Positions 24,441 to 41,152 are shown, counted from the stretch's first letter. The stretch: 64,000 bases of DNA from Nitrospirota bacterium (GCA_016212215.1 JACRGV010000005.1:1391-65390); one strand, 5' to 3'. Translations and numbers: made by a program. The notes: a model not told the origin generated them from the sequence alone.

Positions 24441-25559
24441 TTATCCTAATAGCTTAAGAACCATTTGCGGAGTCATGTTTGCCTGGGCAAGCATCGCATT
24501 ACCTGCCTGCATAAGCACCTGGTTCTTTGTAAATGAAGTCATTTCAAAAGCCATATCCGCATCCCTGATAATGGAATCTGCTGCAATAGTATTTTCTATG
24601 GTGGCCGCCAGATTACTTGCTGCAAACTGCAGCCTGTTCTGTTTAGCACCTATATCACCGCGTTTTGTTGTCACATAAGATATTGCAGTATCAATATCAC
24701 TCAGCGCACTCTGGGCAGATGCTGCTGACGTAAGGGTCACATCGAATGTAGCGCCGTCTTTTAAACTAGATGTCTTAAGATTACCTATTGCCAGAGATAT
24801 TCTGTCATCGGAGCTGCTTGATGCTCCAACCTGGAAATCCTGAGTTCCGGCAACTACGGTAAAATAAGCAGCATTCAACTCATTACTTACACTATAATTG
24901 CTGTCAAGGGTTATCTTAACTCCAAGTGATTTGAAGTCCAAAGTCTGTGCCCCTGTCCCTGACAATGTGATCGTCTGGGTTATAGAGCCATTCCAGAGAG
25001 CTATTGTATTATCTCCAGCATCTGTAATTGTATATGTGGCAGATGTATCTACTACCCCTGAAACATCTATCTTTGCAGCACTGGCAATACCGGCGGTGAC
25101 TAAATTCTGGCTGCCTATGCTTGCAGTAGCACCGAAGTTGCCGTTAATAAGGGTATTTGAACCGTACTTTGTAGAATTGGCAATACGATCTATTTCCTGT
25201 TCAAGCTGTGTAGCTTCATCATTCAGCTTAGTCCTGTCTGTAGATGTCAGGTTAGCAGAAGATGCCTGTGTTGCAAGCTCTTTGAGCCGCTGTAAAATAT
25301 TTCCGACTTCATTTGCACCGCCTTCAGCCACCTGTAAAATGGCCATGGCTTGAGATGTATTATCGCTTGCCTTCTTGAATGAACGTATGTTTGCTCTTAA
25401 TGATTCGGAAATTCCAAGACCTGCTGCATCATCACCTGCTCTGTTGATTTTGTAACCTGATGATAATTTTTCCAAAGACTTTGAAAGCATATCATCCGAT
25501 CCGCCTAATGAACGGTGGGCATTGAAAGCGGCTATGTTGTTGTTAATCCTGAGTGACAT
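24441..25559 (-). CDS. fliC: Flagellin.
   Basis: MSLRINNNIAAFNAHRSLGGSDDMLSKSLEKLSSGYKINRAGDDAAGLGISESLR... N-terminal D0/D1; C-terminus ...QANMTPQMVLKLLG. Confidence 0.95.
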   Translation of the reverse strand: MSLRINNNIAAFNAHRSLGGSDDMLSKSLEKLSSGYKINRAGDDAAGLGISESLRANIRSFKKASDNTSQAMAILQVAEGGANEVGNILQRLKELATQASSANLTSTDRTKLNDEATQLEQEIDRIANSTKYGSNTLINGNFGATASIGSQNLVTAGIASAAKIDVSGVVDTSATYTITDAGDNTIALWNGSITQTITLSGTGAQTLDFKSLGVKITLDSNYSVSNELNAAYFTVVAGTQDFQVGASSSSDDRISLAIGNLKTSSLKDGATFDVTLTSAASAQSALSDIDTAISYVTTKRGDIGAKQNRLQFAASNLAATIENTIAADSIIRDADMAFEMTSFTKNQVLMQAGNAMLAQANMTPQMVLKLLG

Positions 25560-25560
25560 G

Positions 25561-25630
25561 GTTAATCCTCCTTGATTGATTTACTAAGGTTTTCTTTGCC
25601 TTAGTTTGTTACGGCATCCTTGCCGTATGA
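25561..25630 (-). promoter_or_regulatory. Flagellin 5' leader with two CsrA-type binding sites: BS1 hairpin ACGGCAAGGAUGCCGU and BS2 AUCAAGGAGGAUUAACC overlapping the SD.
   Basis: BS1 is a 6-bp stem presenting AAGGAU in the loop, matching the CsrA SELEX consensus RUACARGGAUGU. BS2 is CAAGGAGG at the SD, 8 nt from the AUG. The arrangement mirrors the B. subtilis hag leader. Confidence 0.55.
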
Positions 25631-25721
25631 ACCGGACTTATCTTAAAATCGGGAGCCGGCCCTTCTCCACTTTTTCAATCTCACCTGCCTTTCCTTTTTT
25701 ATTGTCTCGTTGATGGTAATT

Positions 25722-25750
25722 TTTATCGGAGATGGTATGAATAACTTTAA
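25722..25750 (-). promoter_or_regulatory. Sigma-28 (FliA) promoter for flagellin: TAAAGTTA-N11-TCCGATAA.
   Basis: mRNA-sense TTAAAGTTATTCATACCATCTCCGATAAA against the consensus TAAAGTTT-N11-GCCGATAA, 14/16 with correct spacing, about 165 nt upstream of the fliC ATG. Confidence 0.6.
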
Positions 25751-28700
25751 TAGGTATCTGCAAGCAATACCAGTGAAGTCTTATAAGACTCCATAGCCTC
25801 ATGCAATAAAGACCTAGCCTCAAATGATTCGCCGATGGAGTCAAAGATTTTTGAAAGTTCTTTTGTTGAATTTATTTCAATATCAATATTCATTTCAGTA
25901 TATTTTAATACCTTGTTACATGCCTCAACACAAGATTGTAAATCTCTTGTAAGTGCAAATAGTCTTGATAAAGAAATGTGCAATGTTAAAGCATTCGGGT
26001 CAATATTCAATGCCTTAGAAAAATATTCTGCGGCTTCATAATATTCCCCGGCTTCCATTAAACAACAGCCGGAATAATAATATTTCAGGTAATCCATTTT
26101 CTTTATTGGTAACGGATATGAGCTGATCTCTATATTTAGATTTTGATGAACTTCCATTTGCTTCAATGCTTCGCTGTATCTTCTTTGAAAGAACAATGCC
26201 TCTCCCAAGAAAAAATATCCGGTAGCAAATTCAGGGAAAAGGGCAATCAACTCCTCGTATATTTTTACGGCATCATCTTGTTTATCCGATTCCCTGTAAA
26301 ATTGGGCCAGCTTAACATAAGCAAACGGATACCAATCCATGTTCCTTACTGCTGATCCCTTCTGAATTCTTGCTTTATCCATATAATATATAGCCTGAAC
26401 AATATCTCCAATGCAATAGAAACTATTCGCCAGATAAAATAGTTTTAAAGGGTCATCCGGAGTTAATGCAAGCTCTTCCATCAGCAGTGGTATATTCCTC
26501 TTAACCTTCATCCTGATTTCATCATCATTCCTGTAACCATAATGTTCAACATTAATATCAAGAGGCGTCACTTTAATACCGGTTTGTTTTAGCGAACCAG
26601 ACACATCCTCATGGACTTTTCCTTTAAATTCAATACCCGGGATATTCGGGAATATCCTGAGACTCCGGAAACTTTCTTCCTCATGATTAAGCTCGTTTAT
26701 TTGATTATTCCGTTTGCTTGTTATAATGATAGAATACGCCTCTGCTTTGCCGTTATAGCTATTAGAACTGTTACGTGTTTCGGGCAGGGTTTCCTTTAAC
26801 TTCAGAATCATATCTTTTGATTCCTGGGATATTTTTTCATCTGCATCAAGCCATAATATATAATCACCGGAGGCATTTTTGATTGATATATTTCGAGGGC
26901 CTGAGAAATCATCTTTCCATTCAGTCTGTAGTATTTTTGCCCCATAAGAAGATGCTATCTTCAGAGTATCATCTATAGAACCGGTATCAACGACTATAAT
27001 CTCATCAACAATATTTGCGACTGATTCAAGACATTCTTTCAACACAGCCTCTTCATTTCTGACTATCATACAAAGTGATAATTTTGGTTTCTTTAAATTT
27101 ACCTTTTTTAATTCATTCAATAACATTGAGACATCATCTAAATGCTGATTCAGCAGCAACGCCTTCTCCAATGACTCAACAGCATGACTTTTGTCGTCTA
27201 ATTTAAGGTAAGATAATCCTATATTTTTATAACATGACGCATAATCAGGTTTTAGATCAATTGCCTTCTTATAATAAATAATGGCCTTATCATAATCTCC
27301 AATCTCATAATAAGCAGAGGCAATGTTATTATATAACCCGGGGTTATCAGGTTCTTTGTTGATACCTTGATTTAAATAAACTATAGCTTCCCTGTGAAAT
27401 CCAAGTGTTATCAGACTTGCCCCAAGATACCCATGAACAAAGGGGAAGTCAGGATTTATGTCCAATACTTTTTTAAATGCCTCAACAGCCTCAGCCGCTA
27501 ATCCATATTCACAGCACTCTATCCCATATTCATAATATGCCTTTGGATTTTCCGGTTCTTCTTCAATCTTCATCCTACAGTAATTTATATACTTAATCCT
27601 TTTCTCTCTTAAAGATAATCCTGATTTTCCTGCACCATAATGATGAACCGGTATGGCAGTCTCTCCAATTATGAGTTTCAGATTTCTTACAGAATCTTCT
27701 ACCAATTCATGAATAACCCCGCTGAATCTTATTCTGCGGTCATTCCTGAACAACCTTACCTTACGGGACGGGAACCATCCTGAATTGCCGCTGCCCTCTT
27801 TATATGAGTTGTCATTTTGTATCCAGACTGCCCCCCTTGAATCATTTATATAATTTCTTGTTAAGAAACTAAAAGCATCATATTCCTTACTTTCACACAG
27901 CAATCTCAATGATTCAATATCTCTCTCTGCAATTATCTCATCCGCATCCAATATTAGTATCCAATCCTTTGTTGCAAGGTCAAGAGACATATTCCTTGCA
28001 TCACTGAAATTATCATTCCATTTAAAGTTGTAGACTTGTGCCCCATATTCGCGTGCAATCTCAATAGTCCTGTCTTCTGAACCGGTATCAACAACTATCA
28101 CTTCGCTTACTATGCGATGCACAGACTTGATGCATTGTGCCAGATTTGCTTCTTCATTTTTAACTATCATGCAAAGAGAAATGCCATGCGTAACTTCTCC
28201 TTCTTTTATACTCTTATTAACTGTCATAAAAAGATCGTTCATAAAGGTCAAAGCAAATCCCCCCCTTTGTTCAAGGGGGGGCTGGGGGGGTATTTTCGGA
28301 TAAAGATCGTTAAGACTTTTTTTAATTAATGTATTGGAAGGATCTTTCTCCAATGCCTTTTTATAATAATATTCTGCATCTGCATATTTACCTGTTTTCT
28401 TATACGCTAATCCAAGATTTAAGAGGAAGGATGATTCATCCTTGTCGAGTGCAGATGCCTCCATGAATATTGGGATACTACTCTCGTATTCCTTATTCTG
28501 TAGAAACGATACTCCGACTGTATTCAGCCGGCAGATATAATTCTTTGACCCCGGGATTAAAGCCTTTTTAAAATGTATACCAGCCTTCTCTTTATTTGAT
28601 AACTTTAGATAAGCCTGTCCTATAAAAAGATTTGCCTTTTCATAAGCCTCCCCCTTCTCCTCCGGTTCATAATTATTATCAGGCATGTTTTCATAAATAT

Positions 28701-29880
28701 TAATAAGCCTTTCCATTCTGTCGGTATATGTATGTTCGCATAGAACCCTCTGATAACCGGCCTCTGCAATCTTTCTCATCTGAGCAGGATTACTCAGGTA
28801 ATAACCGGTAAGTCTGTTTAATTCCTCTTTATCCCTGTAACATATTATCTCTTTTCCTATTAAAAAGTACTCTTCCAATTCCTCTTTGAAATCCGTCAAT
28901 AGAAAGGACATGCATGCAGGGACATCAAATACCCTTTGATTAACTGCTGTAACAAGCTGTGTCCTTGAAATGTTAAGGTTTATCAATGAGGCATTGTATA
29001 CCTTAGGAAGGTCTTCAAAATAATCTACCGCCGGATGAAGGCTGCATTTATCTAAAACCATTAGCCAGCTCTTGTTTCCATATATCCTGATACCATATTT
29101 TAGAAGAGGCCGTATCAATTCTGCTCTGTAATCCCTGCCTGATTCATGCTCAATAATTATATTGATAACCCATGGAATATCCTCCTGCGGATATATTGGA
29201 TTTAATCTAAAGTAATCTAATGCTGACTGATATATTTCAGGAGTACTTTTCTTAGTACCTTTTTTAAGGTTTTCTGAGGCAAGCCTTATTACATCATTCA
29301 TCTCTTTCGGCATGTCAACCCATCTGTTTCTAAGTACATTTCTTAATAATGCACACTTGTCGGCATAACTATAACCCACAAAGCTTATATCTGTTTTGTA
29401 TTTCGCGATATCAGCAGTATCAAGAGTCAGCGGCTTGAAATAATTATCATCTGCACCAAGAGGAAGGTGGTAGGTTTCAGTCATGCCCAGTTTCTTCATC
29501 TCCTCGCACTGATGTTTATCATATACAAGTTTTGTAAATAAATCTGAGTGATTATATTGCCCATAATTAAGCACTATGAGCGGATTATCTACGAACCAGA
29601 TGAATACATGAATATTCAGTATCCTATAGGCTGATAATAATATCCCATCCCTGTCACAGGTTTTTCCATTTATATCCAGAATAAGGTCAGGACCAAAAGG
29701 GATTATCTCTTTGAGCAGGGCTAACGGATCGAATAGGTCGAAGACATTAGAACCCTCCTCGCCCTTCAATTTCATTAGTTGTACGGTATGTCCGATTGCC
29801 TGGAGCCCCCGTACACAGCTTGGGCCGATATAACCTTTTTCATGGTCAATTACAGTAATTTTTAATTTTTCTTTTTTCAT
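25747..29880 (-). CDS. Giant multi-domain glycosyltransferase (1377 aa): CgeB-like GT domain - TPR - GT2 - TPR - GT2 - TPR.
   Basis: CgeB/DUF3880-like tail NISRTQLVTAVNQRVFDVPACMSFLLTDF. Two GT2 cores (LCMIVKNEEANL...VVDTGSEDRT...DADE and LCMIVRNEEAVL...VVDTGSIDDT...DADE). Multiple TPR blocks. An in-frame repeat insertion (KIPPQPPLEQRGG) lies in a linker. Confidence 0.8.
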   Translation of the reverse strand: MKKEKLKITVIDHEKGYIGPSCVRGLQAIGHTVQLMKLKGEEGSNVFDLFDPLALLKEIIPFGPDLILDINGKTCDRDGILLSAYRILNIHVFIWFVDNPLIVLNYGQYNHSDLFTKLVYDKHQCEEMKKLGMTETYHLPLGADDNYFKPLTLDTADIAKYKTDISFVGYSYADKCALLRNVLRNRWVDMPKEMNDVIRLASENLKKGTKKSTPEIYQSALDYFRLNPIYPQEDIPWVINIIIEHESGRDYRAELIRPLLKYGIRIYGNKSWLMVLDKCSLHPAVDYFEDLPKVYNASLINLNISRTQLVTAVNQRVFDVPACMSFLLTDFKEELEEYFLIGKEIICYRDKEELNRLTGYYLSNPAQMRKIAEAGYQRVLCEHTYTDRMERLINIYENMPDNNYEPEEKGEAYEKANLFIGQAYLKLSNKEKAGIHFKKALIPGSKNYICRLNTVGVSFLQNKEYESSIPIFMEASALDKDESSFLLNLGLAYKKTGKYADAEYYYKKALEKDPSNTLIKKSLNDLYPKIPPQPPLEQRGGFALTFMNDLFMTVNKSIKEGEVTHGISLCMIVKNEEANLAQCIKSVHRIVSEVIVVDTGSEDRTIEIAREYGAQVYNFKWNDNFSDARNMSLDLATKDWILILDADEIIAERDIESLRLLCESKEYDAFSFLTRNYINDSRGAVWIQNDNSYKEGSGNSGWFPSRKVRLFRNDRRIRFSGVIHELVEDSVRNLKLIIGETAIPVHHYGAGKSGLSLREKRIKYINYCRMKIEEEPENPKAYYEYGIECCEYGLAAEAVEAFKKVLDINPDFPFVHGYLGASLITLGFHREAIVYLNQGINKEPDNPGLYNNIASAYYEIGDYDKAIIYYKKAIDLKPDYASCYKNIGLSYLKLDDKSHAVESLEKALLLNQHLDDVSMLLNELKKVNLKKPKLSLCMIVRNEEAVLKECLESVANIVDEIIVVDTGSIDDTLKIASSYGAKILQTEWKDDFSGPRNISIKNASGDYILWLDADEKISQESKDMILKLKETLPETRNSSNSYNGKAEAYSIIITSKRNNQINELNHEEESFRSLRIFPNIPGIEFKGKVHEDVSGSLKQTGIKVTPLDINVEHYGYRNDDEIRMKVKRNIPLLMEELALTPDDPLKLFYLANSFYCIGDIVQAIYYMDKARIQKGSAVRNMDWYPFAYVKLAQFYRESDKQDDAVKIYEELIALFPEFATGYFFLGEALFFQRRYSEALKQMEVHQNLNIEISSYPLPIKKMDYLKYYYSGCCLMEAGEYYEAAEYFSKALNIDPNALTLHISLSRLFALTRDLQSCVEACNKVLKYTEMNIDIEINSTKELSKIFDSIGESFEARSLLHEAMESYKTSLVLLADTY
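28255..28292. repeat. GC-hairpin repeat copy in-frame within the 1377-aa GT.
   Basis: cccccctttgttcaagggggggctggggggg. Confidence 0.7.
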
Positions 29881-31160
29881 AACATTTCTAAAATACGTCT
29901 TGCCTCTTCATTTCCGGGGTCATATTTGACGGATAGTCCTATCTCTCTTTTTGCATCCTCTCTTTTCCCTGTTTCAGCGTATATCAGACCAAGATAAAAT
30001 CTCGGCATGCTGTACTGAGGATTTATTCTGACTGCTTCCATAAACTCCTCTGATGCCTCTTTCTTTTTACCGAGTAAATAATAGGCCACACCAAGATTAT
30101 GCCTTGCAATAGAATGATTAGGGTAAACGCGTATAACTTCTCTGAAATGAAGCAAAGAATTGTTAATATCACCGTTTTTAAAGAATATTTCTCCCAGCAT
30201 ATAGTGGGCATTGAAATGCGCTGGTTTTATCCTGATGACATTCAGCAGGAATTTTAATGCCTCATCGGCACGCCCCCTCTTTACCAGAAAATTAGCAAAA
30301 TTATATTGAAACATCGCATTATCGCTATTTAACCTCAATGCCTTTAAATAGAATTTTTCAGACTTCAGGTCATCTGATTTCTCTTCTGATAGTAAAGCAA
30401 GCTCATGATAAGCATCACCAAAACCCGGTTTGGAATCTAATAACTCATTCAGCAATTGTTCTGCCTTTTCAAGTAAGCCTGCTTCTATATTCAGGCGTGA
30501 AGCCCTTAATAAATATTCCGTATTTCCGGGATATTCCCTTGCACGTTTCTCCTCTAATAACGCATAACGCTGTAATTTATTCTTGAATTGATCTTCACCC
30601 CTCATAAATCCATAATGATGAATCGGTATATGAGAATCCTGAAACTGTAATCCTTTATCCTTCATGCTGTCTTCAAGCGTCTCATGAATCCTGCCTTTAT
30701 ATCTTATCCCAAGACCATTCCTGAAAAGCCTGACAAGCGGGAAAGGATGGAACCCTGAAATGCTCATACTTTCTTCATAATCCATTGGATTAGGCAGCCA
30801 TCCGATTATATTTGATTTTTCACTATAATTTCGCAGAATAAAAGTATATCCTGCATATTTTTGGGTTTTTATTAATTCACTTATCTTTGAAAGGTCCCTG
30901 CCTGCGATGGCTTCATCAGCATCAAGTACAAGTATCCAGTCACCTGATGCCTTTGAGATTGAAAAATTCTTTGCCTCACTGAAATCATCATTCCAGTTGA
31001 AGGGGAATACTCTTGCATTGAATCTATTTGCTTCCTCAACCGTCCTGTCGGTAGAGCCTGTATCAACAACAATAATCTCATCTGCTATTTGCTGTACGCT
31101 GGATAATGCCCTGCCGATAACCTCCTCTTCGTTTTTAACAATCATGCAAAGCGTCAACAT
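29877..31160 (-). CDS. GT2 glycosyltransferase with C-terminal TPR repeats.
   Basis: MLTLCMIVKNEEEVIGRAL...IVVDTGSTDRT...LDADE; TPR (AYHELALLSEEKSDDLKSEKFYLKALRLN...). Confidence 0.8.
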   Translation of the reverse strand: MLTLCMIVKNEEEVIGRALSSVQQIADEIIVVDTGSTDRTVEEANRFNARVFPFNWNDDFSEAKNFSISKASGDWILVLDADEAIAGRDLSKISELIKTQKYAGYTFILRNYSEKSNIIGWLPNPMDYEESMSISGFHPFPLVRLFRNGLGIRYKGRIHETLEDSMKDKGLQFQDSHIPIHHYGFMRGEDQFKNKLQRYALLEEKRAREYPGNTEYLLRASRLNIEAGLLEKAEQLLNELLDSKPGFGDAYHELALLSEEKSDDLKSEKFYLKALRLNSDNAMFQYNFANFLVKRGRADEALKFLLNVIRIKPAHFNAHYMLGEIFFKNGDINNSLLHFREVIRVYPNHSIARHNLGVAYYLLGKKKEASEEFMEAVRINPQYSMPRFYLGLIYAETGKREDAKREIGLSVKYDPGNEEARRILEML

Positions 31161-31198
31161 AATATTTCCTTATAGTAACAGTCTTTGTTCATCCAATA

Positions 31199-31290
31199 AC
31201 CCCATCCCCACCCTACCCCTCCCCTTGAAGGGGAGGGAATCAACGTAGCCCCCTCTCCCTCAGGGAGAGTGTCCGGGTGAGGGTGGGGTT
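31199..31290. repeat. GC-hairpin repeat, double-hairpin form.
   Basis: cccatccccaccctacccctccccttgaaggggagggaat...ccctctccctcagggagag...gggtgagggtgggg. Confidence 0.8.
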
Positions 31291-31339
31291 TTCATTGCCC
31301 TTTGTGAGCGCCCCGCTCATGACGGTTCATCCAATAATC

Positions 31340-31378
31340 CCATCCCATCCCTAACCCTCCCCTTGAAGGGGAGGGAAT
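31340..31378. repeat. GC-hairpin repeat copy. Together with 31186-31240 it forms a tandem duplication of the 'ttcatccaataaYcccatccc...' unit.
   Basis: cccatcccatccctaaccctccccttgaaggggagggaat. Confidence 0.8.
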
Positions 31379-31413
31379 GAACTTTAGTATCCCTATACCC
31401 TTCATTTTTTATC

Positions 31414-33123
31414 TTATACATTGACTAAACCGATTCTCTGAAATACAGCACTTGTAATCTCATTCAAAATTATTATCATTCCGGATGATAATAATTTTAA
31501 CAGCCTGTATATCTCCATTGTTTCTCTTATTATCTGTATTGGGTTTTCTTCATGAATACTTGCCTTCTGCATACGGTAAAACGTAGTCAAAGGTCTTATA
31601 TGTTCTGTACCTGAGCCTTTCTCATAAATTAATAAATCAATAATCTCAATATCTTCCATCTTTTCCTGAATGGTGTTTATATAACTTTCTTCATTAGAAA
31701 ATATATTGGAAAGGGTTTCTTCAGCTTTTATTAATCCACGTTCTGCAAAACACTCTAAGACCCTGAGCGCTGATATTAAATCATCAGATTTTTTATCAAA
31801 AGTATCCGGTAAACCTGTTATATCCTTATCTGTTATATCAAAGGTCTCTTTCAGCCATTGGATCTCAGATACAGGAACACTTCCAACTTTTCTGTTGCCC
31901 AGCACATCCTTCCATAGCCTCTTATAGGCAAGCATTAAAATATCATTGAATGTAAGCGGCCTTTTAACAAGCGGGACATACGATATGAACCCGTCATCAT
32001 CAAACATTGAGATATTTACTTCAATGTTTTTGTTATTACAATTTATTGAATTATCCGGATTCAACGCATGGTTAATAACAGAAAACACATCCCCTGAAGA
32101 AATGTTATGCCGGCATTTATAATCAATTGAACATTCATCCTTCCACATACATGGATAACAATCAATAACAGGTGATATTGTTATATGCCCTCTGCCGTAC
32201 GGCCCGGTTTCAATGGGATATGCATGACATATATATAAGCCTATAACCCTTGTGCCGGCTGCGCTTGATAAATGTACAGTTCCTGTGTCATTGCTGACAA
32301 GTAATTTACAACGTTTTAATATGGCGGCAAGCTGTGAAAATGTTGTCTTTCCTGTCAGGTCAACAACGCCGGGATTATCATTTTTAATAGTCTGAGTAAT
32401 ATCCCTTTCAGGGTTTGTTCCAAGGACAATAACCTTTATTCCAGAATTTATGAGCAATCCGGCAAGTTCTGAGAATCTCTCTTTGGGCCAGATACGCCTC
32501 CTGATACTTGCACCCGGCTGTAAGGCTATAACCGGTGTCCCGTCACTCAACCCTTCTTCATGGAATAGCTTCATAGCAAACTCGTCTGCTGAATCACCTG
32601 TCTGGAACCCGCTCATGTCTTCAACAGGGGATCCATATTCGTAATTTCTGAAAACATCAATAATATGGAAAGGGTTGTACTCTCTGGTTTGAACCACACA
32701 CCCCATGTAATTTGCCCATGACCCGTTAACTATCCGTTCGCCATTGCTTCCTGTTGTAAACCCGACCGTGTCAGGTACTTTCAATAGTGACGTTATAAGT
32801 GTTGTTATCTTATTAAAATTAAGATTAATAATGCGATCAAATCTAATATCCCTCAGACCCTCTATAACATTTTTCAGATACCTGTAACCGTATAATATAA
32901 TTTCAGTCTCATCCAATCCGCTCATTCCGCCGGGAAGATTAAGCCAGTCTGCAATCATAACTGAATCAACCTCTTTATAACCCATTAATATATCCTTAAC
33001 TTCTTCACGTGCTAATACTGTGACGTGAGAATCCGGATGAATTTGCTTAATACCCTTTATCAATGGGACTATGAACAGGTTATCCCCAAATCTGTCGAGT
33101 TGAATCAAAAGTATCTTTACCAT
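31414..33123 (-). CDS. GT9-family (heptosyltransferase-like) glycosyltransferase with a C-terminal extension domain.
   Basis: MVKILLIQLDRFGDNLFIVPLIKGIK... and ...SNDTGTVHLSSAAG are GT9 hallmarks; about 220 aa of extra C-terminal sequence. Confidence 0.65.
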   Translation of the reverse strand: MVKILLIQLDRFGDNLFIVPLIKGIKQIHPDSHVTVLAREEVKDILMGYKEVDSVMIADWLNLPGGMSGLDETEIILYGYRYLKNVIEGLRDIRFDRIINLNFNKITTLITSLLKVPDTVGFTTGSNGERIVNGSWANYMGCVVQTREYNPFHIIDVFRNYEYGSPVEDMSGFQTGDSADEFAMKLFHEEGLSDGTPVIALQPGASIRRRIWPKERFSELAGLLINSGIKVIVLGTNPERDITQTIKNDNPGVVDLTGKTTFSQLAAILKRCKLLVSNDTGTVHLSSAAGTRVIGLYICHAYPIETGPYGRGHITISPVIDCYPCMWKDECSIDYKCRHNISSGDVFSVINHALNPDNSINCNNKNIEVNISMFDDDGFISYVPLVKRPLTFNDILMLAYKRLWKDVLGNRKVGSVPVSEIQWLKETFDITDKDITGLPDTFDKKSDDLISALRVLECFAERGLIKAEETLSNIFSNEESYINTIQEKMEDIEIIDLLIYEKGSGTEHIRPLTTFYRMQKASIHEENPIQIIRETMEIYRLLKLLSSGMIIILNEITSAVFQRIGLVNV

Positions 33124-33326
33124 CCCGGCTCTCCTTTATATCTCTTGATTACGCCTTCAAGTAACAGGAATATTTCTTCAGCCTCAGTAAATCTGCCTGA
33201 ACCGCTCTCAATATGTTCTCTGATTGTTCTGAAATTAAATATCTTATCCTGGGGAATATTTTTGAGATATTCGGATAAAGCAGGATCAATACTTTGCATT
33301 TTCAAAACCATTCCGATTGTTGTCAT
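33117..33326 (-). CDS. Small hypothetical protein upstream of, and overlapping, the GT9 gene.
   Basis: 69-aa ORF in operonic position; no motif. Confidence 0.25.
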   Translation of the reverse strand: MTTIGMVLKMQSIDPALSEYLKNIPQDKIFNFRTIREHIESGSGRFTEAEEIFLLLEGVIKRYKGEPGW

Positions 33327-33333
33327 TTATTGA

Positions 33334-33412
33334 CCACCCCCACCCTAACCCTCCCCCGTCAAGGGGGAGGGAATAATTGATATAACCTCTCCGTCAAGTG
33401 GGAGGGAATATT
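33334..33412. repeat. GC-hairpin repeat (two hairpins).
   Basis: ccacccccaccctaaccctcccccgtcaagggggagggaat...ctctccgtcaagtgggagggaat. Confidence 0.8.
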
Positions 33413-33416
33413 ATTT

Positions 33417-36400
33417 TTAGTACGAATTATTTTTCCTCTGTTCAAACTCTGCTACAACCTGTTGTACCTCGGGATTGCCGGGCTGTTTCAAATTAGCGAG
33501 CCGTATCACATCCTCTGCGTCCTTCATATCCCCCTGTTCAAGGAAATACCGGGAAAGGAATATATATGTCTGAATGTAATGGGGGTCAATTTCGAGAGAG
33601 TCCACAGCATATTGAAGTGCTTCAGAGATATTATGTAGTTCCTTTGCAATACAGGCAAGTTTATAGAGGGATTCAGCAAATGTCGGATCTTTGCTTAAAT
33701 CGTCTTTGTATATGGAGATCGCTTCTGTTAATTTCTTATCCTGAACTAATTGTTCCGGTAATGTGTGTGTATCGTACGAATGGTGATTGCATGGTATGTC
33801 TGCATCAACTACTATGCCGCCTGCTTTTATGATAAAAAAACCTTCCCCGCGAACACGACGCTGCAAGAACCAGAACATCTCCTCGTCATTGTTGCTAATG
33901 GCAAGCCCCTGTATACAGGGGCGAATCAGTTTTCCGTTGATTACAGAAATAGACATATCTGCATACTGAATAATCTCTACACTTTTTCCGTTTCCTGTTC
34001 GGTGTGCATGTGTAAGAGGGGCGTAGTTGCCGGTGGGGACAGTTATTGCAGCATCCGGGTATCCTAATGCAATGTCAATTATTGCGCGAACTTTTTCCTG
34101 TGACGGATTCAGTTTTTTATCAATAAGGACAATGAAATCGTATTGTCCCTTCGTCATCGTTTCTATCAGCCAGGGTTGTATCGGATCTCCGCCAGGGGAA
34201 ATGATCTCCCCTCTGTAGAACTCTGCAATGGAAGTGTAGCTTCTCAGGTGATCCGCAGGTATAGATGTGCCGCCGCCTCTTTCTACAATAGCTATACGTG
34301 GGAACCTAATGACAGTGTTTTCCGCCACCGGGATGAGATCGTCCGGTTCATAAGGCATTAATGTAAGTTTACCCTGTTGCCCTACTTCTATTCGTTCATT
34401 TTTATTAAGTTTTATAAAATATTTTTCCTTGTTGATATTTTGAGACGGCCCGAACATATCCGCCCGGTATCTGCTTGTGGTAACGCTGCCGAAGTGGTGG
34501 ATAAAAACGTCATTAGCAACGATCAACCTATATCCTGCTAAAAGAAGCCGCAAGGTTAAATCGTCATCACTAAAGCCATATCCGCCGTCTCTGCCATTGG
34601 TAGGAAGATCAGGGTCCCACCCTCCAATCCTTTCTAATATCTCCTTTTTTATAATATAAAGCATACCAACTACTCTCTGAGTTTCGAAATTCGATCCTTT
34701 GTGGTTCTTTCCCCACTCGGCTGCAAATGTCTGGTAAGCTTCTAAGGTGTCATACTCTGCTTGAGCAGCCTGTGGGCCGCTTATATTGTTTGAGCGTGGC
34801 CCAACCATTGCTATGTCAGGCGCAGATTCGATTTGTCCGATGAAATTATGCAGCCATCCCTCGTGCACAATCGTGTCATTGGTGACAGCGACAATGTATT
34901 TTCCTAGTGTAAGTGAAGCTACATAGTTGCCGAGATATTCAACATTGCGGTTCTGATAATTTCTAATAATGCGGGTATTGGGATGGAATGTCTTGACAGA
35001 TTCAAAATATTCATAAGTACCGTCTGTTGAGCCGTTATCAACGAGCAGTAATTCGTAATGGCCTGTAGTATAATGTAAAATACTCTCTACGCACAGCCTG
35101 GTGTATTGAATCTGATTATATGCTAAAACGATAATACTTGTCATAATGCTTTCGTTATCTCCCAGGTTATTCGATTGCAAGGTATCAATAGAAGAGGAAA
35201 GGCTATTCACAGGAGCAGGCGGAATTGATTGAAGAAAAGGAGATGGGCTGACGTGCGGCAGAGTCTTGGCATTAGCAGGGAATCCGACATGGTTAAATAT
35301 TCCCAAAAGCCGGTGCGTCCAAGTATGTTCGGCAATCGTCCGCTCGTATCCACGCTGTGCAATCACCTCACGTTCGTGAACATGGGAAAGATAATACATG
35401 GATTTGTCAATCAATTCTTCCGGAGAGGATGCAAGCACAACTTCCCTGTCAGGCTCATAGTACTCTTCCAAATGGTCAGCAGGTGTTGTAAGCAGGAATC
35501 CCCTGCACCCCGGTATCTCAAAAATCCTTTTACTAATCTTATGGTCATCGCTGCCAATAGAATCACCAATATTTAGATTTATCTTTGTTTGATTATAAAT
35601 CCTCACCATATCTTGATACGGTATGTCCATTGACCCGGGCCAACCGAAACCGAAAACATCAATAGCGAAACGGTTTTGGCGTATCTTCTCTATTATGTCT
35701 GAACGATTATCCTTAGCCGAACCAACAAAGCTCATATCTCGCGTCCTGACGCCTGGCATTTGTTGATAAGTAAATGGGTTGAATGCCCACTGGCTTTTAA
35801 TAACTTTATGACCGAAACCGGCTTGTTGGTATTTGCCTATGTCTTCATGCGAGGTGGTTATAATGTGGTCAACGCAGGGTGCCCAATGCTGCGCGTTATA
35901 ATCAAAACTATGACGGTCATCGTTCATCCAGATGATTGTTTGTGTATCTGTATGATCAGTAATTGAGCGCAATGCTTCAGGCAGAATGTCCGCATGAATG
36001 TTAAACGGGCTGTATAAGAACAGATCAAACTGTTCTTTACGAACAATTTCCATGAGCCTGTCCGACATGCCGGCAACCCCTCGCTGCTGCGCCTCGGTGA
36101 CGAAATCATAAAATTGCACCTGTACGTCCTCAAAGCGATTAAGTGCATCGTACATGTTCCACCAATTATAATCATATCCTCTTTGTGCATTGCCGGAATT
36201 ATATTTGGCTCCGGCAACCAATACCTTTATCGCCGGTTTCTTTCTGATAAGGGAAAACTTGTGATCCCGCACAGCAGGTACCATAAGCCCCTGTATTCGC
36301 GAGATCAACTGCTCTCTAATGATTTTATTATTATACAGTTCAGGAGGCGAGGCACTCGATAAATGCTTCCATGACCACATCACAGGATTACTTATAAACT

Positions 36401-38843
36401 GCCAGGCCCTTACCGTTGGCGGTACGGCTTTACCTTCTGTCCATGTTCTGTCCCCGTCAAATAGTGTGTCTAATGATTTTGATGATGCTCCGGCACACAC
36501 TTCCACCAGAGAATCATAAAGCGCATAAGAGGAGTACTTACGCAAGTTTCCGTTAATTATCCACGCGTCAATCGCTGAGACATATCCTTCATATTCTTTC
36601 TGGGACATATTTCTAAGATAGTTGTCGAGTTCTCCAAGGCCGGCAAATCTACGAAAATCAATGAAGCATTCTTCTGAAATATAATCCCCGATATTAGAGG
36701 CACCTAAGTATATAGGCACTGTCCTCGCTTCAAAACAATCGAGAATCTTTTCTGTAATGTAACCGGCAGACAGCGTCTGATGGTTAGTGTTCTCAAAACA
36801 TAGGCTGTAGCGGTATTGTTTCAGTACAGATATTTTTTGACCATCCGGGATTGCACCGCAGTAATTGGTCATTTGGAAAGCTGTTCTGCCGTATACATCA
36901 AAGGGGATTGCCGAGTTTTTAGAAAACCACTCTGCAACCTCAATGCGTTTTGAGTAAAGCTCACCTGGTACATGAGAATGTTTATTGCCGCTGATCATAC
37001 AGATCGCATTCTTACGGCCCATTAAAGGGTAAAGCAATTCGCGCTGACGCGGCATTTCAGTGACCGGTTCCTTTGTTGATCCATCAGCACGCGGAAATAG
37101 TATCTTCTTGAATCTATTGTCCTGTCCGATAAGCGCATCGAATAGCGTGAAAACATAGTCAAAATGCTTCCAGACACGCTCATCAAATTCACCGGGTAAC
37201 ACAACAGCAGGTTCGAGCATGACAAGGATATTTAAACCAGGCCGCTTGCCCCGGTAACTGAACGAATTGTGATATGCATAATGGTCACATCCTTCTATAG
37301 GAAGTTGAGACCAGAGAATAGATACATTGCCTCTATGAACTTCAGTAACATAATTCGGGCGTAAATGCCCATATACAATATTTATTGTGAACCTGTGCCG
37401 GCTGCCGGGATGAGGGATTACAGTCCTCAAATTAAACTCCTGTTCAAGTTTTGCAAGCTCTCCACGTATAGGTATAGAATGATCTATGGTTGTACAGAAT
37501 TCTTTGCTGACAAATATACCGTTAGTGCGATTATCAAATACCAAAAGATAATCATGCTGTTCCAGAAATTGTACAATTTCATTACCACCGACATTAATCT
37601 CAATGATTATAAGGGATGGCCGATAACGGTTCCAATCATTGCTTTTCAAAACAGCAAGGTCGTAGCCCTCCGCATCAACAGACAGAAAATCTATCTTCTG
37701 CCCTTTAAGGTGTGACTCTAAAATATCAACAAGTTTTACAACAGGAGCCGGCTCTTCAGAGACTAACGCAGCACCATAGATTTTTCCGGCCTGAATGGCA
37801 GCCTGTTTGTTGAAGGAAGAGAGGGTATCTGCCGACATGCGATAAAATGTCATGGTCCCGGCTTCCGGTCCGACACCGACTTTAAGATTGATATCCCGGA
37901 CTCTCTTTTCACAGAGTTTGGCGTGAAGATTAGGTTCGGGTTCTATATTGATACCGCACCATCCTCTATTATAAAACAGCTTGGTGTTACTGATTACATC
38001 CGGGTCATTTGCCCCAATGTCTATATAGACGCCTGTTTTTTTGTGCGATAGCAGGGCATCTATGACCACATCTTCACCGTATTGACTATACGATTTTAGG
38101 AATGAGTTCGGTAATACCTTGGGGACTAACAGTTCACGTTCCATAATGAATTCAATATGGTCGGATGATTTTTCTCCTTTGACCCTCCACCGGACATCCA
38201 TTTCCCATGCTGCTTCAGCCTGCTGTGGAGATACAGGGTCAATCCACAACACATCATAATTTTCAGATAAGAGTTCTGTAAAATCACTGAATTTACTTTC
38301 CGGTATTCCAAGGTATCTTGGCGGTGTATTGTCAGGTTCAACTTCGCACTGGATTTCACGAATCTGCCCTTTTTGGATCATATCTTTGAGGGATTTCAGG
38401 ACAGTAAGGTCCATCCCCTGCAAATCTGTAATCAGCGTGTCTATTTCCTGAATGTTATTGGTTATACAAAAATCATGAAGATTTATTGCAGGTACTTTTA
38501 TCTTCTTTTGTGAAGTAAGCAAGCCGCTTATCATGTGCCCAAACTCAGGGTTAGGCATGCCGAGAGAAGAAGCAGGGTCCCAATTTGTCGTAATTGTAAA
38601 CTCTACGTCCTCCCCGCTCTTTTCTGTCAAAGCCCCGTAAATAAATTTTACATTGGGATCATTTTTATACATGTTGCCGGCATTTACCACTTTATCCGGA
38701 TTGGCATCAAAGCCATAACACATATCGAAATATGGTCTGATGCGGCTGAAGTTGACTAAATTGTGAATTCCACAATAAAACAATATTTTCATCGGCAAAC
38801 CTCTCATAGTGTTTTCTATTGTTGTAAACTGTTTATTTTGCAA
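33417..38843 (-). CDS. Giant multi-domain protein (1808 aa): 2x FkbM-type methyltransferase - GT10-like fucosyltransferase motif - CgeB-like GT - GT2 - TPR.
   Basis: FkbM motifs (GVYIDIGANDPDVISNTKLFYNRGWCGINIEPEP). GT10 signature YRYSLCFENTNHQTLSAGYITEK. CgeB tail (NIGDSIGSDDHKISKRIFEIPGCRGFLLT). GT2 core (IIVLAYNQIQYTRLC...LLLVDNGSTDGT). C-terminal TPR. Confidence 0.8.
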   Translation of the reverse strand: MQNKQFTTIENTMRGLPMKILFYCGIHNLVNFSRIRPYFDMCYGFDANPDKVVNAGNMYKNDPNVKFIYGALTEKSGEDVEFTITTNWDPASSLGMPNPEFGHMISGLLTSQKKIKVPAINLHDFCITNNIQEIDTLITDLQGMDLTVLKSLKDMIQKGQIREIQCEVEPDNTPPRYLGIPESKFSDFTELLSENYDVLWIDPVSPQQAEAAWEMDVRWRVKGEKSSDHIEFIMERELLVPKVLPNSFLKSYSQYGEDVVIDALLSHKKTGVYIDIGANDPDVISNTKLFYNRGWCGINIEPEPNLHAKLCEKRVRDINLKVGVGPEAGTMTFYRMSADTLSSFNKQAAIQAGKIYGAALVSEEPAPVVKLVDILESHLKGQKIDFLSVDAEGYDLAVLKSNDWNRYRPSLIIIEINVGGNEIVQFLEQHDYLLVFDNRTNGIFVSKEFCTTIDHSIPIRGELAKLEQEFNLRTVIPHPGSRHRFTINIVYGHLRPNYVTEVHRGNVSILWSQLPIEGCDHYAYHNSFSYRGKRPGLNILVMLEPAVVLPGEFDERVWKHFDYVFTLFDALIGQDNRFKKILFPRADGSTKEPVTEMPRQRELLYPLMGRKNAICMISGNKHSHVPGELYSKRIEVAEWFSKNSAIPFDVYGRTAFQMTNYCGAIPDGQKISVLKQYRYSLCFENTNHQTLSAGYITEKILDCFEARTVPIYLGASNIGDYISEECFIDFRRFAGLGELDNYLRNMSQKEYEGYVSAIDAWIINGNLRKYSSYALYDSLVEVCAGASSKSLDTLFDGDRTWTEGKAVPPTVRAWQFISNPVMWSWKHLSSASPPELYNNKIIREQLISRIQGLMVPAVRDHKFSLIRKKPAIKVLVAGAKYNSGNAQRGYDYNWWNMYDALNRFEDVQVQFYDFVTEAQQRGVAGMSDRLMEIVRKEQFDLFLYSPFNIHADILPEALRSITDHTDTQTIIWMNDDRHSFDYNAQHWAPCVDHIITTSHEDIGKYQQAGFGHKVIKSQWAFNPFTYQQMPGVRTRDMSFVGSAKDNRSDIIEKIRQNRFAIDVFGFGWPGSMDIPYQDMVRIYNQTKINLNIGDSIGSDDHKISKRIFEIPGCRGFLLTTPADHLEEYYEPDREVVLASSPEELIDKSMYYLSHVHEREVIAQRGYERTIAEHTWTHRLLGIFNHVGFPANAKTLPHVSPSPFLQSIPPAPVNSLSSSIDTLQSNNLGDNESIMTSIIVLAYNQIQYTRLCVESILHYTTGHYELLLVDNGSTDGTYEYFESVKTFHPNTRIIRNYQNRNVEYLGNYVASLTLGKYIVAVTNDTIVHEGWLHNFIGQIESAPDIAMVGPRSNNISGPQAAQAEYDTLEAYQTFAAEWGKNHKGSNFETQRVVGMLYIIKKEILERIGGWDPDLPTNGRDGGYGFSDDDLTLRLLLAGYRLIVANDVFIHHFGSVTTSRYRADMFGPSQNINKEKYFIKLNKNERIEVGQQGKLTLMPYEPDDLIPVAENTVIRFPRIAIVERGGGTSIPADHLRSYTSIAEFYRGEIISPGGDPIQPWLIETMTKGQYDFIVLIDKKLNPSQEKVRAIIDIALGYPDAAITVPTGNYAPLTHAHRTGNGKSVEIIQYADMSISVINGKLIRPCIQGLAISNNDEEMFWFLQRRVRGEGFFIIKAGGIVVDADIPCNHHSYDTHTLPEQLVQDKKLTEAISIYKDDLSKDPTFAESLYKLACIAKELHNISEALQYAVDSLEIDPHYIQTYIFLSRYFLEQGDMKDAEDVIRLANLKQPGNPEVQQVVAEFEQRKNNSY

Positions 38844-39895
38844 AGTGACAAATGGTGTGCAATTGTTCGTTCAATGGCTGTCCTAAGATCAACGACCTGT
38901 CTAATTCCTAAATTTATTTGTGCCAGCTTTGTCAACGGTACATATCGTTCGGCTGGCCTGTCTGCGTCAGGTAATTTGGCTATTCTCACCTCAATAGGCT
39001 TCTGAAAACTCTTTGCCACCGTATCAGCTACATCCGCAATAGTTATATCATCTTCCGAGCCGACGTTATATGCCCTGCATGACTCGCCATTAAAAAGGAT
39101 CGTCCATAACCAGACGGCCAAATCAGCAGCGTAGAGGTAGGAGCGATAAGGCGTCCCATCCCCGTTGACCAGGATAGGGCCGCCATTCAATGCATCCCGT
39201 ATGAAATTCCCAATTGCGTAATGGATATCTAAGGGCAAGTGGGGGCCGACAAAGGAAAAACATCGGGCGATCTTAGTTTCGATGCCATACCTGCTTGAAT
39301 AATACGCACATAGAAATTCTGCTGCACGTTTGCCTTCTCCCCAAGCGGAGTTTGGATCAGCAGGATCTGGAGCGCCGCAATAATCTTCTGAAATATGGGT
39401 CATGCCGGATGGTTGTTTACCATAGACAACCCCGGAACTTGTATAAAGAAACTTTCTTGCATGACACTGAACAGCAAAATCAAGGGTATGCCTTGTTCCC
39501 TCGACAATGGTATCGAACTTCACCAGTGGGTCTTCGTTGTTGAACGTGGCAATGGCTGATGTGGCGGCGGCGTGAATGATGTGTGAGAATTCCCCTTCAG
39601 GGAAACTGAAATCCCTGACATCTCCAATATGAAATTTGATTGCCGGATTGGCAGCAAGGTGTGGTGCATTCTTTTGGAACGTATCGTAATTCCTCGTAAG
39701 AACAATGGCTGATGCATTAAGATCGAGGTTATCATTCGCCCAGGCAAAACTCTCCAAAAGCCAGCAGCCGAAAAAACCGGTGCCGCCGGTAATAAACAGG
39801 CGTTTCCCCCGGAGGTCTTCCCAAAGACCTCCGGTATGTGTCAGAATATAATCCAAATCCCCTGTAAGAGGGTTATCTCGAAGATTGCTATGCAT
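38816..39895 (-). CDS. NAD-dependent NDP-sugar epimerase/dehydratase/reductase (extended SDR).
   Basis: Rossmann motif ITGGTGFFG, with the YxxxK catalytic region downstream. Confidence 0.8.
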   Translation of the reverse strand: MHSNLRDNPLTGDLDYILTHTGGLWEDLRGKRLFITGGTGFFGCWLLESFAWANDNLDLNASAIVLTRNYDTFQKNAPHLAANPAIKFHIGDVRDFSFPEGEFSHIIHAAATSAIATFNNEDPLVKFDTIVEGTRHTLDFAVQCHARKFLYTSSGVVYGKQPSGMTHISEDYCGAPDPADPNSAWGEGKRAAEFLCAYYSSRYGIETKIARCFSFVGPHLPLDIHYAIGNFIRDALNGGPILVNGDGTPYRSYLYAADLAVWLWTILFNGESCRAYNVGSEDDITIADVADTVAKSFQKPIEVRIAKLPDADRPAERYVPLTKLAQINLGIRQVVDLRTAIERTIAHHLSLCKINSLQQ

Positions 39896-39972
39896 ACAAA
39901 TGGCCTTCTAACGCAAGATGATCCATCGGGTTATCCTCCCCACATAATATCTTTTTCTACGTAATTCATGGC

Positions 39973-41088
39973 TCAAGGACGGAAAAGCTGACGTTGATTC
40001 GGATCAATTAAATCCTCGCTTGTAAATACTTCGGAATAAGGTACCGGGAGCGGTTTGCCATAAACATTTTTTGCCACAATATCAATAAATTCATTGTTTT
40101 CACCAATAAGACACTTAGGAGTATATTTCCCGAACCACTTAACACTTAAACCCCTTTCGATAATATCTTTTAATGGCTCCTTAAAAAAATTCCCAAGCGA
40201 AATATGGATGTAAGGGCATGGCATCACATCACCATACTTAGTAATTGAAACCATTCTTTTGACTGCTATGCAGCCTAAATCAAGACCATACGACGGAGTC
40301 ATATGTGTAAACACAGGATATTTTTTCTCGAGTTCTCTCACATAATCTGCATCATCTTGAGTGATAAGGACATCAAAATTACCTTCCCATGCCCCAACGG
40401 GCTTAGCATATGTGACATAAACACCTATTCCCCTTGCTTGCGAAAACTCCAATAAATCAAGAAACTCCTGTGATCTGGCCCTGTGCTTTGTGAGCACCGT
40501 TTGAAAAATCAGATTTAATCCTACGTCCAATGCTGCATCAACAGCCCTCATGATTCTTTCATACGAATTGTCTTTATGTCTGAATTTATCATGTTCCGTT
40601 GGTGAAAAGTTATCAAGGCTCAACTGAATTTTATCAATGCCTATCTTTTTCATATGTTTCGCTCTTTTTTCATCCAATAGCCATCCATTAGTATCAGAAG
40701 TTATGTAGAATTTATTTGGGTTGATTGCCTCAACTATATCATCAAAATCCGGGAATATTAATGGTTCGCCGCCTGTGATTACAATATGCGCAAGTCCCAT
40801 TTCGTCAGCTTGTCGTGAAAGTTCTTTTACATCTTTAGGTGTAAAAAATCTCCGCGTGTCAGCTTCACGTTCTTTCTTGGTTTTGTGCTGGAATTTATCT
40901 ATTGAACAATGTTCACAAGTAAAATTGCACGTATAATCATATTGGAATTGAAGTATCGCTATGCTCTCTCCATTTTTAATTTTATCATCATATTTCATGA
41001 TTTTATCATAGACATAAGGTTTTTCTTTTTTTAGCAGGTTCCTTTTATCTGTTTCATGAGCTTTTACTTGTTCTTGTTGAGTTGACAT
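39973..41088 (-). CDS. Radical SAM protein with a SPASM/twitch-like C-terminal Cys cluster.
   Basis: CNFTCEHC (CxxxCxxC), then the later cluster ...LDLGCIAVKRMVSITKYGDVMPCPY. Confidence 0.75.
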   Translation of the reverse strand: MSTQQEQVKAHETDKRNLLKKEKPYVYDKIMKYDDKIKNGESIAILQFQYDYTCNFTCEHCSIDKFQHKTKKEREADTRRFFTPKDVKELSRQADEMGLAHIVITGGEPLIFPDFDDIVEAINPNKFYITSDTNGWLLDEKRAKHMKKIGIDKIQLSLDNFSPTEHDKFRHKDNSYERIMRAVDAALDVGLNLIFQTVLTKHRARSQEFLDLLEFSQARGIGVYVTYAKPVGAWEGNFDVLITQDDADYVRELEKKYPVFTHMTPSYGLDLGCIAVKRMVSITKYGDVMPCPYIHISLGNFFKEPLKDIIERGLSVKWFGKYTPKCLIGENNEFIDIVAKNVYGKPLPVPYSEVFTSEDLIDPNQRQLFRP

Positions 41089-41152
41089 AATATTTATCTC
41101 CTTATTAAATTGATTTAATATCTAAGAACCATAACTAAGAGTTTATAATCAG

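Follow-up and report, generated by a model that had tools for sequence, protein, structure and literature searches.

The window analysed here is a 64,000-nt stretch of DNA from a Nitrospirota bacterium (GCA_016212215.1, JACRGV010000005.1:1391-65390). It contains on its minus strand a flagellin gene (ATG at 25559), and the subject of this work is the messenger RNA (mRNA) leader of that gene, together with the regulatory genes csrA and fliW found in the same window. Ahead of the flagellin ATG we found a sigma-28-type promoter followed by two conserved CsrA-type stem-loops with GGA in their loops, the second of which overlaps the Shine-Dalgarno sequence (SD). These elements point to translational control of flagellin by CsrA and FliW.

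Downstream of the flagellin gene lie flaG, fliD and fliS, in that order and on the minus strand. Taken as a whole, the late flagellar genes of this strand read flgH-flgI-flgJ-like-flgM-flgN-flgK-flgL-csrA-fliW, then come an island of about 31 kb and finally flagellin-flaG-fliD-fliS. The order flgM-flgN-flgK-flgL ... flagellin-flaG-fliD-fliS is that of the late flagellar genes of Bacillus subtilis, and by this comparison the window has a late flagellar cluster resembling the one of B. subtilis, interrupted by a glycosylation island. An earlier note on this DNA, made from the sequence alone, had described csrA and fliW (at 57013-57877) as a cognate pair encoded 32 kb away from the flagellin gene. 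Both genes were confirmed by Pfam and the spacing is real, but they are not a distant pair: they end the flgM-flgN-flgK-flgL cluster, and the separation from flagellin arises because the island sits inside the late flagellar cluster. The coordinates of all these features are given in Table 1.

Table 1. Features of the flagellin leader and associated genes in the window (negative positions in the last column are relative to the start codon of the gene concerned; SD, Shine-Dalgarno sequence; ORF, open reading frame)
Feature	Coordinates	Strand	Remarks
-35 element TAAAGTTA	25742..25749	minus	sigma-28 (FliA/SigD)-type promoter
-10 element TCCGATAA	25723..25730	minus	sigma-28 (FliA/SigD)-type promoter
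5' SD-like purine box GGAAAGGCAGGUGAG	25680..25694	minus	about 20-35 nt from the predicted 5' end
Single-stranded UGGAGAAG	25662..25669	minus	just 5' of hairpin 2
Hairpin 2 (GGGCCGGCU ... AGUCCGGUUC)	25629..25662	minus	conserved in the Nitrospirota group
Upstream CsrA-type hairpin (BS1-like)	25610..25627	minus	GGA 25619..25617 at -60..-58 from the ATG
Hairpin 3 (CUAAGG-N9-CCUUAG)	25583..25605	minus	between both CsrA-type sites
SD-overlapping CsrA-type site (BS2-like) AAUCAAGGAGGAUU	25564..25577	minus	-18..-5; GGAs at -12..-10 and -9..-7
Flagellin gene, 372 aa	24441..25559	minus	Pfam Flagellin_N 6e-35, Flagellin_C 2e-24
Glycosylation island, ~31 kb	25747..55819	minus	putative flagellin-glycosylation genes; between fliW and flagellin
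fliW	57013..57492 (ORF call, TTG 57492) or from GTG 57474	minus	Pfam FliW 1.3e-39
csrA, 78 aa	57641..57877	minus	Pfam CsrA 5.9e-24 over residues 1-52
csrA SD hairpin augcc-AGGGAG-ggcau	57881..57896	minus	GGA at -12..-10 from the csrA ATG

The promoter elements TAAAGTTA and TCCGATAA are separated by a spacer of 11 nt. The sigma-28 consensus is TAAA(GTTT)-N11-GCCGATAA, and 14 of the 16 positions agree with TAAAGTTT-N11-GCCGATAA. The flagellin promoter was the sole site in the window with at most two mismatches to this consensus, the top-scoring sigma-28-type site and the only exact TAAA-N14-16-CCGATA. No other convincing sigma-28 promoter was found in the window; a 12/16 match situated 39 nt ahead of the gene for aspartate kinase (9542) does not exceed chance, shuffled sequences giving about 7 such matches. 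The -35 element overlaps the TAA that ends the preceding open reading frame (ORF), which codes for a TPR/glycosyltransferase protein of 1377 aa, and 163 nt separate the end of the -10 element from the ATG. The transcription start site (TSS) would fall at about 25714-25716, 7-8 nt after the -10, which would give a leader of about 156 nt. No sigma-70-like promoter was predicted on the minus strand inside the leader. A gene for the anti-sigma factor FlgM is present in the window (Pfam 2.6e-17), and fliA was not found within its 64 kb.

For comparison, we collected 13 related loci, the flagellins of which are 65-82% identical to that of the window; they come from Nitrospirae metagenome-assembled genomes (MAGs), from metagenome contigs and from MAGs labelled Thermodesulfobacteriota, Deltaproteobacteria or Pseudomonadota. 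The window itself is identical to a contig of a Nitrospirota MAG at NCBI, as is its flagellin to a Nitrospirota MAG flagellin there. Among the loci with sequence at the equivalent place, the -35 element TAAAGT[TA]A was retained in 11 of 12 and the -10 element CCGATA in 12 of 13, and the complete arrangement TAAAGT[TA]A-N11/12-NCCGATA was likewise kept in 12 of 13, with divergent spacer sequences. In a wider set, a sigma-28-like motif was present in 28 of 116 non-redundant flagellin upstream regions versus 1 of 565 control windows. The near-consensus sigma-28 promoter of the earlier note was thus recovered, and its leader of about 150 nt agrees with the predicted TSS. The single exception among the relatives is locus L082. 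Its leader (1-100) is identical to that of L163 (1312-1420) downstream of GATAAAAATG, with unrelated sequence upstream of this point; its -10 box is broken (GTAGATAA), and a TATAAT lies about 10 nt upstream. This is probably due to a rearrangement or to a chimeric contig or assembly artefact, a natural promoter swap being the alternative.

The upstream CsrA-type hairpin, UACGGCA-AGGA-UGCCGUA, has 7 bp and was present in both the minimum free energy (MFE) and the centroid folds with its GGA unpaired; written in hexaloop form it reads UACGGC-AAGGAU-GCCGUA, and its core CAAGGAUG matches the CsrA/RsmE core CANGGANG. When the 14 leaders (window plus 13 related loci) were folded individually, 13 of them formed this hairpin with GGA in the loop, and GGCAAGGATGCC was invariant in all 14. 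The outer two stem pairs covary, one changing between C-G and U-A and the other among A-U, U-A, G-C and U.G. We also scored 49 gene starts in the window with a strict descriptor, an A-N-G-G-A-N hexaloop on a stem of at least 4 bp within -130..+12 of the start codon. Only two starts matched, that of flagellin with two sites (at -60 and at the SD) and that of csrA with one, at its own SD.

The SD-overlapping site itself folds into a small hairpin, AAUC-AAGGAG-GAUU (aaucAAGGAGgauu), whose loop is the SD and whose core CAAGGAGG again matches CANGGANG. The architecture is therefore one of two GGA stem-loops, the second over the ribosome-binding site (RBS). All ten close leaders share an invariant AAUCA(A/U)GGAGGAU, which L169-L171 retain as (U)UCAAGGAGGAU. 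At least three flanking pairs were found around 31 of 89 ANGGAN-type flagellin SDs, versus a mean of 16 and a maximum of 25 in shuffled sequences, and the stems of the SD hairpin covary across flagellin loci (aauc/gauu, uuuc/gaaa, caauc/gauug, gaauc/gauuc). Both sites had been pointed out beforehand, a leader hairpin presenting GGA in its loop and a CsrA-type site across the SD, and both hold up: the former folds as described and is kept in relatives, the latter is conserved and enriched as a hairpin.

Several candidate structures and sites were discarded. The upstream hairpin is not followed by a run of U and the minus-strand terminator scan was empty, so we did not retain it as a terminator or attenuator. 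A third GGA, in flagellin codon 4 (Arg4 AGG), alternates with AGA in relatives and is thus not a conserved site. The MFE fold proposed a long-range helix between GAUUGA (25680..25675) and UCAAUC (25579..25574), of which relatives keep only GAU/AUC without compensatory changes, and the RNAalifold pairs 44-47/223-226 are spurious since they pair -10 DNA, upstream of the predicted TSS, with the SD. In Rfam, nothing in the whole window reached the gathering threshold, and a permissive scan of 25500..25800 returned only noise (E >= 0.76, 9-15 bits versus cut-offs of 39-50). In one relative (L164:690-720), a tandem duplication, AAATGGCC AAATGGCC G AATGGCAAGG, lies directly 5' of the GGA hairpin and makes an extra small hairpin.

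Fourfold-degenerate sites of the flagellin genes showed only 24-58% identity to the window, and 1 of 63 such columns was invariant across the 14 loci. Since the leader elements are invariant or nearly so while these neighbouring sites are near saturation, the elements are under purifying selection. The upstream hairpin also reaches well beyond the close relatives: an ANGGAN hexaloop hairpin of at least 4 bp at -125..-30 was found in 56 of 114 flagellin upstream regions versus 11 of 973 controls (odds ratio ~84). The loop was always A-N-G-G-A-N and the closing pair C-G in 33 of 34 distinct examples, and the stems differed completely between groups: cggagc/gctccg in Gemmatimonadota, tggcc/ggccg and gccggtcc/ggaccggc in Actinomycetota, acgaagac/gtcttcgt in Spirochaetes, tagaaagc/gctttcta in Halanaerobiales and gggc/gccc in Desulfobacterota. 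As these hairpins were chosen for at least 4 inner pairs, their inner pairing is inflated, and it is the invariant loop, the turnover of the stems, the outer pairs, on which no selection was made, and the independent enrichment test that are informative. Among the loci fetched, 8 of 9 flagellin genes adjacent to fliW carried the hairpin. It starts 42-49 nt before the ATG in most phyla, in agreement with B. subtilis hag and its loop GGA at -39..-37 (PMC13443453), whereas it starts at about -68 in the clade of the window and at -99 to -117 in L169-171. E. coli fliC, taken as a negative control (L172, 3108..3200, minus), had no ANGGAN hexaloop and is uninformative as a control. The leader of E. 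coli K-12 fliC, behind TAAAGGTT-N11-GACGATAA, carries an AGGAU SD as well as a hairpin, GGGU-GGAA-ACCC, whose tetraloop contains GGA; E. coli has no FliW.

Beyond the account of the earlier note, the leader holds a conserved 5' SD-like box and further conserved hairpins. In Nitrospirota and Desulfobacterota leaders, the box has the consensus AAAGGRGG(U/G)GA, with invariant columns in the close-leader alignment. An anti-SD site of -13 to -18 kcal/mol, computed with a generic 16S 3' end because the 16S of the organism lies outside the window, was present 19-63 nt after the -10 in 19 of 23 sigma-28-bearing leaders, versus a background of 0.09 per 60 nt; in the close relatives of the window, the complementarity of the box (-13.8 kcal/mol) exceeds that of the true SD (-11.2). 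No GGA is conserved inside the box among the aligned related leaders, which makes it unlikely to be a CsrA site, and in the leaders compared the sequence that follows it conserves neither a start codon nor a frame or a stop. By analogy, the box may be a 30S-binding stabiliser of the STAB-SD type or a standby site for the 30S subunit.

Between the box and the upstream hairpin lie two further elements. The columns of the UGGAGAAG region (T84-A90) were invariant or nearly so in the close-leader alignment, with GGA in 9 of 10 sequences, and the element was unpaired in MFE folds; it is possibly an additional CsrA site of low affinity. Hairpin 2 was recovered in single folds and by RNAalifold; its pairs 113/148, 114/147 and 115/146 show one- and two-sided changes, and the covariation is partial. 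All related leaders have a predicted hairpin 3 at the equivalent place, its stem sequences differing between them (CUAAGG/CCUUAG, AGGGUU/AACCCU, CUUGUGGC/GCCGCAGG, GCA-GGGU/ACCC-UGC), and it would act as a spacer that shortens the effective distance between the CsrA-type sites. The extra sequence of the longer L169-171 leaders also folds into hairpins.

The CsrA of the window is collinear with E. coli CsrA (1Y00) over residues 1-59, including R44, and its C-terminal tail aligns through residue ~69 only with the FliW-regulated proteins of B. subtilis (1T3O) and Geobacillus (5DMB_D). It shares the E54-N55 motif with the CsrA of B. subtilis and Geobacillus, whereas the E. coli protein has K55; the exchange N55D in CsrA impairs the binding of FliW (PMC6529632). 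The FliW of the window matches the one from Geobacillus in the solved complex (5DMB_A, E 4.5e-23). As this alignment begins at ORF residue 8 and the SD GAAAGGAG precedes GTG 57474, that codon is more likely the true start than TTG 57492. The gene csrA precedes fliW with a gap of ~166 nt (57474..57640) that holds a G-tract repeat; the same order, with a 4-nt csrA-fliW gap, occurs directly upstream of flagellin in a Syntrophobacterales locus (L020). CsrA autoregulation is known in E. coli, and the hairpin at the SD of csrA may reflect the same here.

The island between fliW and flagellin encodes several very large TPR-GT2 proteins (1377, 1808 and 849 aa), a GT9 protein, an FkbM methyltransferase, NeuB, a DegT aminotransferase, epimerases/dehydratases, two radical S-adenosylmethionine enzymes (one of them B12-binding), a C-methyltransferase and a thiamine pyrophosphate enzyme. 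The only sizeable plus-strand ORF of the region (56269..57054, 261 aa) has no Pfam match, and its 3' end overlaps that of fliW by 42 nt; at its C-terminus, VPEPGSF is followed by a hydrophobic stretch and RLR, much like a PEP-CTERM sorting signal.

Two families of repeats were observed across the window. A 19-nt element with four G-tracts, GGGGAGGGTTAGGGTGGGG, is a G-quadruplex-type motif that often follows a palindrome such as CCCTCCCCTTCAAGGGGAGGG. It occurs in 17 copies at up to three mismatches versus 0.04 expected (9982, 14149, 15476, 15502(+), 16410, 17498, 31206, 31344, 33338, 46543, 48150, 49614, 54389, 57506, 61703, 62994 and 63000), 16 of them on the transcribed (minus) strand. Most copies lie in short intergenic spacers, including the csrA-fliW gap, and two are inside ORF calls; the element may be similar to repetitive extragenic palindromic sequences, or a processing or stability element. 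Palindromes of the form C5-T3..A3-G5 (CCCCCTTTnnAAGGGGG) number 8 versus 0.34 expected (for instance 28261..28279, 55440..55503 and 1651..1669 (+)). Some of them lie inside TPR-GT2 ORFs, where they are read as PPL.KGG peptide stretches, and they may be small elements inserted within coding sequence.

The leader has a counterpart in that of B. subtilis hag, which is reportedly governed by a Hag-FliW-CsrA partner switch (Yakhnin 2007; Mukherjee 2011). Comparison with hag was made by published positions (-39..-37, C-17) and descriptions rather than by alignment of leader sequences. The two systems share a sigma-28/SigD-type promoter, two GGA stem-loops, a CsrA with C-terminal extension and N55, a fliW next to csrA and a late-gene neighbourhood. 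The hag leader has been described as containing 'two GGA-containing stem loops' (PMC13443453), a design that is experimentally established (PMC7652899, PMC13443453). The earlier statement that the flagellin leader reproduces the architecture of hag thus stands for the two GGA stem-loops, the second over the SD, and fails in its details: the loop GGA is at -60 here and at -39..-37 in hag (PMC13443453), the leader is about 156 nt long whereas the hag 5' untranslated region (UTR) was assayed as +1 to +100, and the window has an extra conserved hairpin between the sites as well as the 5' SD-like box and hairpin 2. The gene organisation also differs, since fliW precedes csrA and is translationally coupled to it in B. 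subtilis, and since in the window the ~31-kb glycosylation island stands between regulators and flagellin.

Evidence for the partner switch has been published for B. subtilis, C. jejuni, B. burgdorferi, C. difficile and H. pylori, and the published view is that the FliW-CsrA-flagellin system is kept in deeply branching lineages (PMC6529632). In B. subtilis, hag can be repressed by a CsrA from Nitrospira (PMC13443453), and FliW recognises the N-terminal ~72 residues and D1-C of flagellin (PMC6070490). The flaA 5' UTR of C. jejuni, whose structure is backed by compensatory changes in relatives, resembles the leader of the window in that it belongs to a sigma-28-dependent late gene and has two ANGGA-loop stem-loops, the second over the RBS, a design established by experiment for flaA too (PMC4894983). 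It differs in its length of 45 nt and in that fliW and csrA are unlinked in C. jejuni; compared with flaA, the early-coding GGA is not conserved here.

At the level of the binding site itself, the RsmE-hcnA consensus is reported to be A/UCANGGANGU/A, and CsrA ligands obtained by systematic evolution of ligands by exponential enrichment (SELEX) reportedly give RUACARGGAUGU (Schubert 2007; Dubey 2005). Both sites of the leader (CAAGGAUG, CAAGGAGG) likewise read CANGGANG and present GGA in a C-G-closed hexaloop, whereas the flanking pair is G-C and not A/U-U/A. The proposed match of the upstream hairpin to the SELEX consensus therefore holds for the central 8 of 12 positions and not for the remaining ones. 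As for the 5' box, the model for comparison is the STAB-SD reportedly found in cry3A of B. thuringiensis (Agaisse and Lereclus 1996). Like it, the box is SD-like, sits close to the 5' end of a long leader with over 100 nt between it and the start codon, has very strong complementarity to the 16S 3' end and is followed by no conserved ORF; it differs in occurring before flagellin genes of Nitrospirota and Desulfobacterota instead of Firmicutes toxin genes. By binding a 30S subunit close to the 5' end, a STAB-SD blocks 5'-to-3' decay, and it does not initiate translation (PMC4113751).

Given the observed sequence elements, their conservation and covariation and the features of the two protein families, we consider it most likely that the window encodes a sigma-28-driven flagellin mRNA repressed by CsrA through two ANGGAN stem-loops, with FliW antagonising CsrA and flagellin titrating FliW. 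Transcription from the sigma-28 (FliA/SigD)-type late promoter would produce a structured leader of about 156 nt, in which two stem-loops would each offer a C-G-closed A-N-G-G-A-N hexaloop, the upstream one (GGA at -60) stable and the one formed by the SD loop weak. One CsrA dimer would bind both hairpins, hairpin 3 bringing the sites close, and the bound CsrA would keep the 30S subunit off the SD and repress flagellin translation. At low cytoplasmic flagellin, FliW would bind the C-terminal region of CsrA, in which N55 is present, and the mRNA would be released; the build-up of flagellin would then titrate FliW and free CsrA, in the way that Hag, FliW and CsrA switch partners in B. subtilis. 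On the simplest reading, the 5'-proximal SD-like box would act in addition as a STAB-SD-type 30S-binding stabiliser of this abundant mRNA. The homeostatic circuit predicted in the earlier note thus gains support at the sequence level from the promoter, from the conserved leader sites, from the CsrA tail with its N55, from FliW and from the recurrence of this leader design ahead of flagellin genes in five or more other phyla.

A number of observations weigh against this proposal. GGA-loop hairpins are common in the window, with 36 on the minus strand having a stem of at least 6, and CANGGANG is present 26 times on that strand. GGA-containing SDs are common too, as every AGGAGG-type SD includes GGA. 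Within this window alone, both CsrA-type sites are weak evidence and, because the hairpin is not statistically unusual there, the evidence for them is comparative. In the survey, about half of the flagellin upstream regions lacked the hairpin by the criterion used. With 48 nt between the sites here and 80-97 nt in L169-171, bridging by a single dimer is an assumption. With regard to the promoter, the -10 box is missing in the relative L082, and transcription may read through from the upstream glycosyltransferase gene, since the minus-strand terminator scan found no terminator between that ORF and flagellin. Finally, the organism is represented by an uncultured MAG, and the circuit function is predicted for it.

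The abundance of GGA loops also speaks for a first competing explanation, that of a generic leader for high expression with no role for CsrA, in which the hairpins would guard against nucleases and the SD would merely be very strong. Flagellin is indeed a very abundant protein, AAGGAGG is the SD consensus and a 5' SD-like box of stabiliser type is present. A purely structural hairpin should nevertheless allow changes in its loop, yet C-ANGGAN-G is invariant across phyla while the stems turn over. Conservation around the SD reaches far past the requirements of ribosome binding, the conserved block folds into another ANGGAN hairpin, and the upstream hairpin co-occurs with adjacent fliW; we therefore regard this explanation as very unlikely. 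It is unlikely, though less markedly so, that CsrA binds the leader but mainly affects mRNA stability, processing or localisation, or works together with the 5' box, by a mechanism unlike that of hag. B. subtilis CsrA also lowers hag transcript abundance by a route that is unexplained (PMC6529632), localisation of flaA mRNA depends on the CsrA-FliW network (PMC4894983), and the leader has extra conserved elements (the 5' box, UGGAGAAG and hairpin 2) for which no counterpart has been described in hag. Set against this, one of the sites lies over the SD, precisely where the established occlusion mechanism has it, and no sequence feature demands another one.

The 5' box could alternatively drive a short leader peptide from an upstream ORF, and the leader would then work through attenuation or translational coupling. 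In several relatives the box is indeed followed by a start codon (ATG/GTG GAG AAG ...), and there is a conserved stretch, GAGAAGNGCNGGCUCC. The presumed start, however, varies among ATG, GTG, CTG and TTG or is missing, the reading frame changes (a UUG frame in the window versus an AUG frame in L164) and stops come after 7 to more than 25 codons. Moreover, the variable third-codon position changes the amino acid (G/S/C/R) while tracking the pairing of hairpin 2, and the boxes of Desulfobacterota run straight into AUGA without spacing. We give this possibility hardly any credence.

Repression by CsrA through the two stem-loops, antagonised by FliW, is thus the explanation we prefer, and it extends the FliW-CsrA-flagellin homeostasis circuit to uncultured Nitrospirota, as judged from sequence with the support of covariation. 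One very specific RNA design is found ahead of flagellin genes in Nitrospirota, Desulfobacterota, Gemmatimonadota, Actinomycetota, Spirochaetes and Halanaerobiales: a hexaloop hairpin of the form C-ANGGAN-G and, after it, a GGA embedded in the SD. The finding agrees with the published opinion that CsrA originally served to control flagellin, and it is confirmatory more than surprising. The circuit and the leader design are already well known; what is modestly new is the long-leader variant with a 5' SD-like box in Nitrospirota and Desulfobacterota, and our literature search found no paper on Nitrospirota flagellin leaders. The added value is modest, consisting of a ready search rule for flagellin leaders and of a 5' SD-like box that may help to explain the effect of CsrA on flagellin transcript levels. 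More tentatively, and with doubts prevailing, the long leaders of Nitrospirota and Desulfobacterota may form a distinct undescribed class that combines the CsrA two-hairpin switch with additional hairpins and the 5' SD-like box, this box being a stabiliser, a standby site or a decoy and CsrA occupancy controlling both ribosome access and transcript lifetime. If this were true, such dual control could explain how CsrA reduces the abundance of the hag transcript in B. subtilis.

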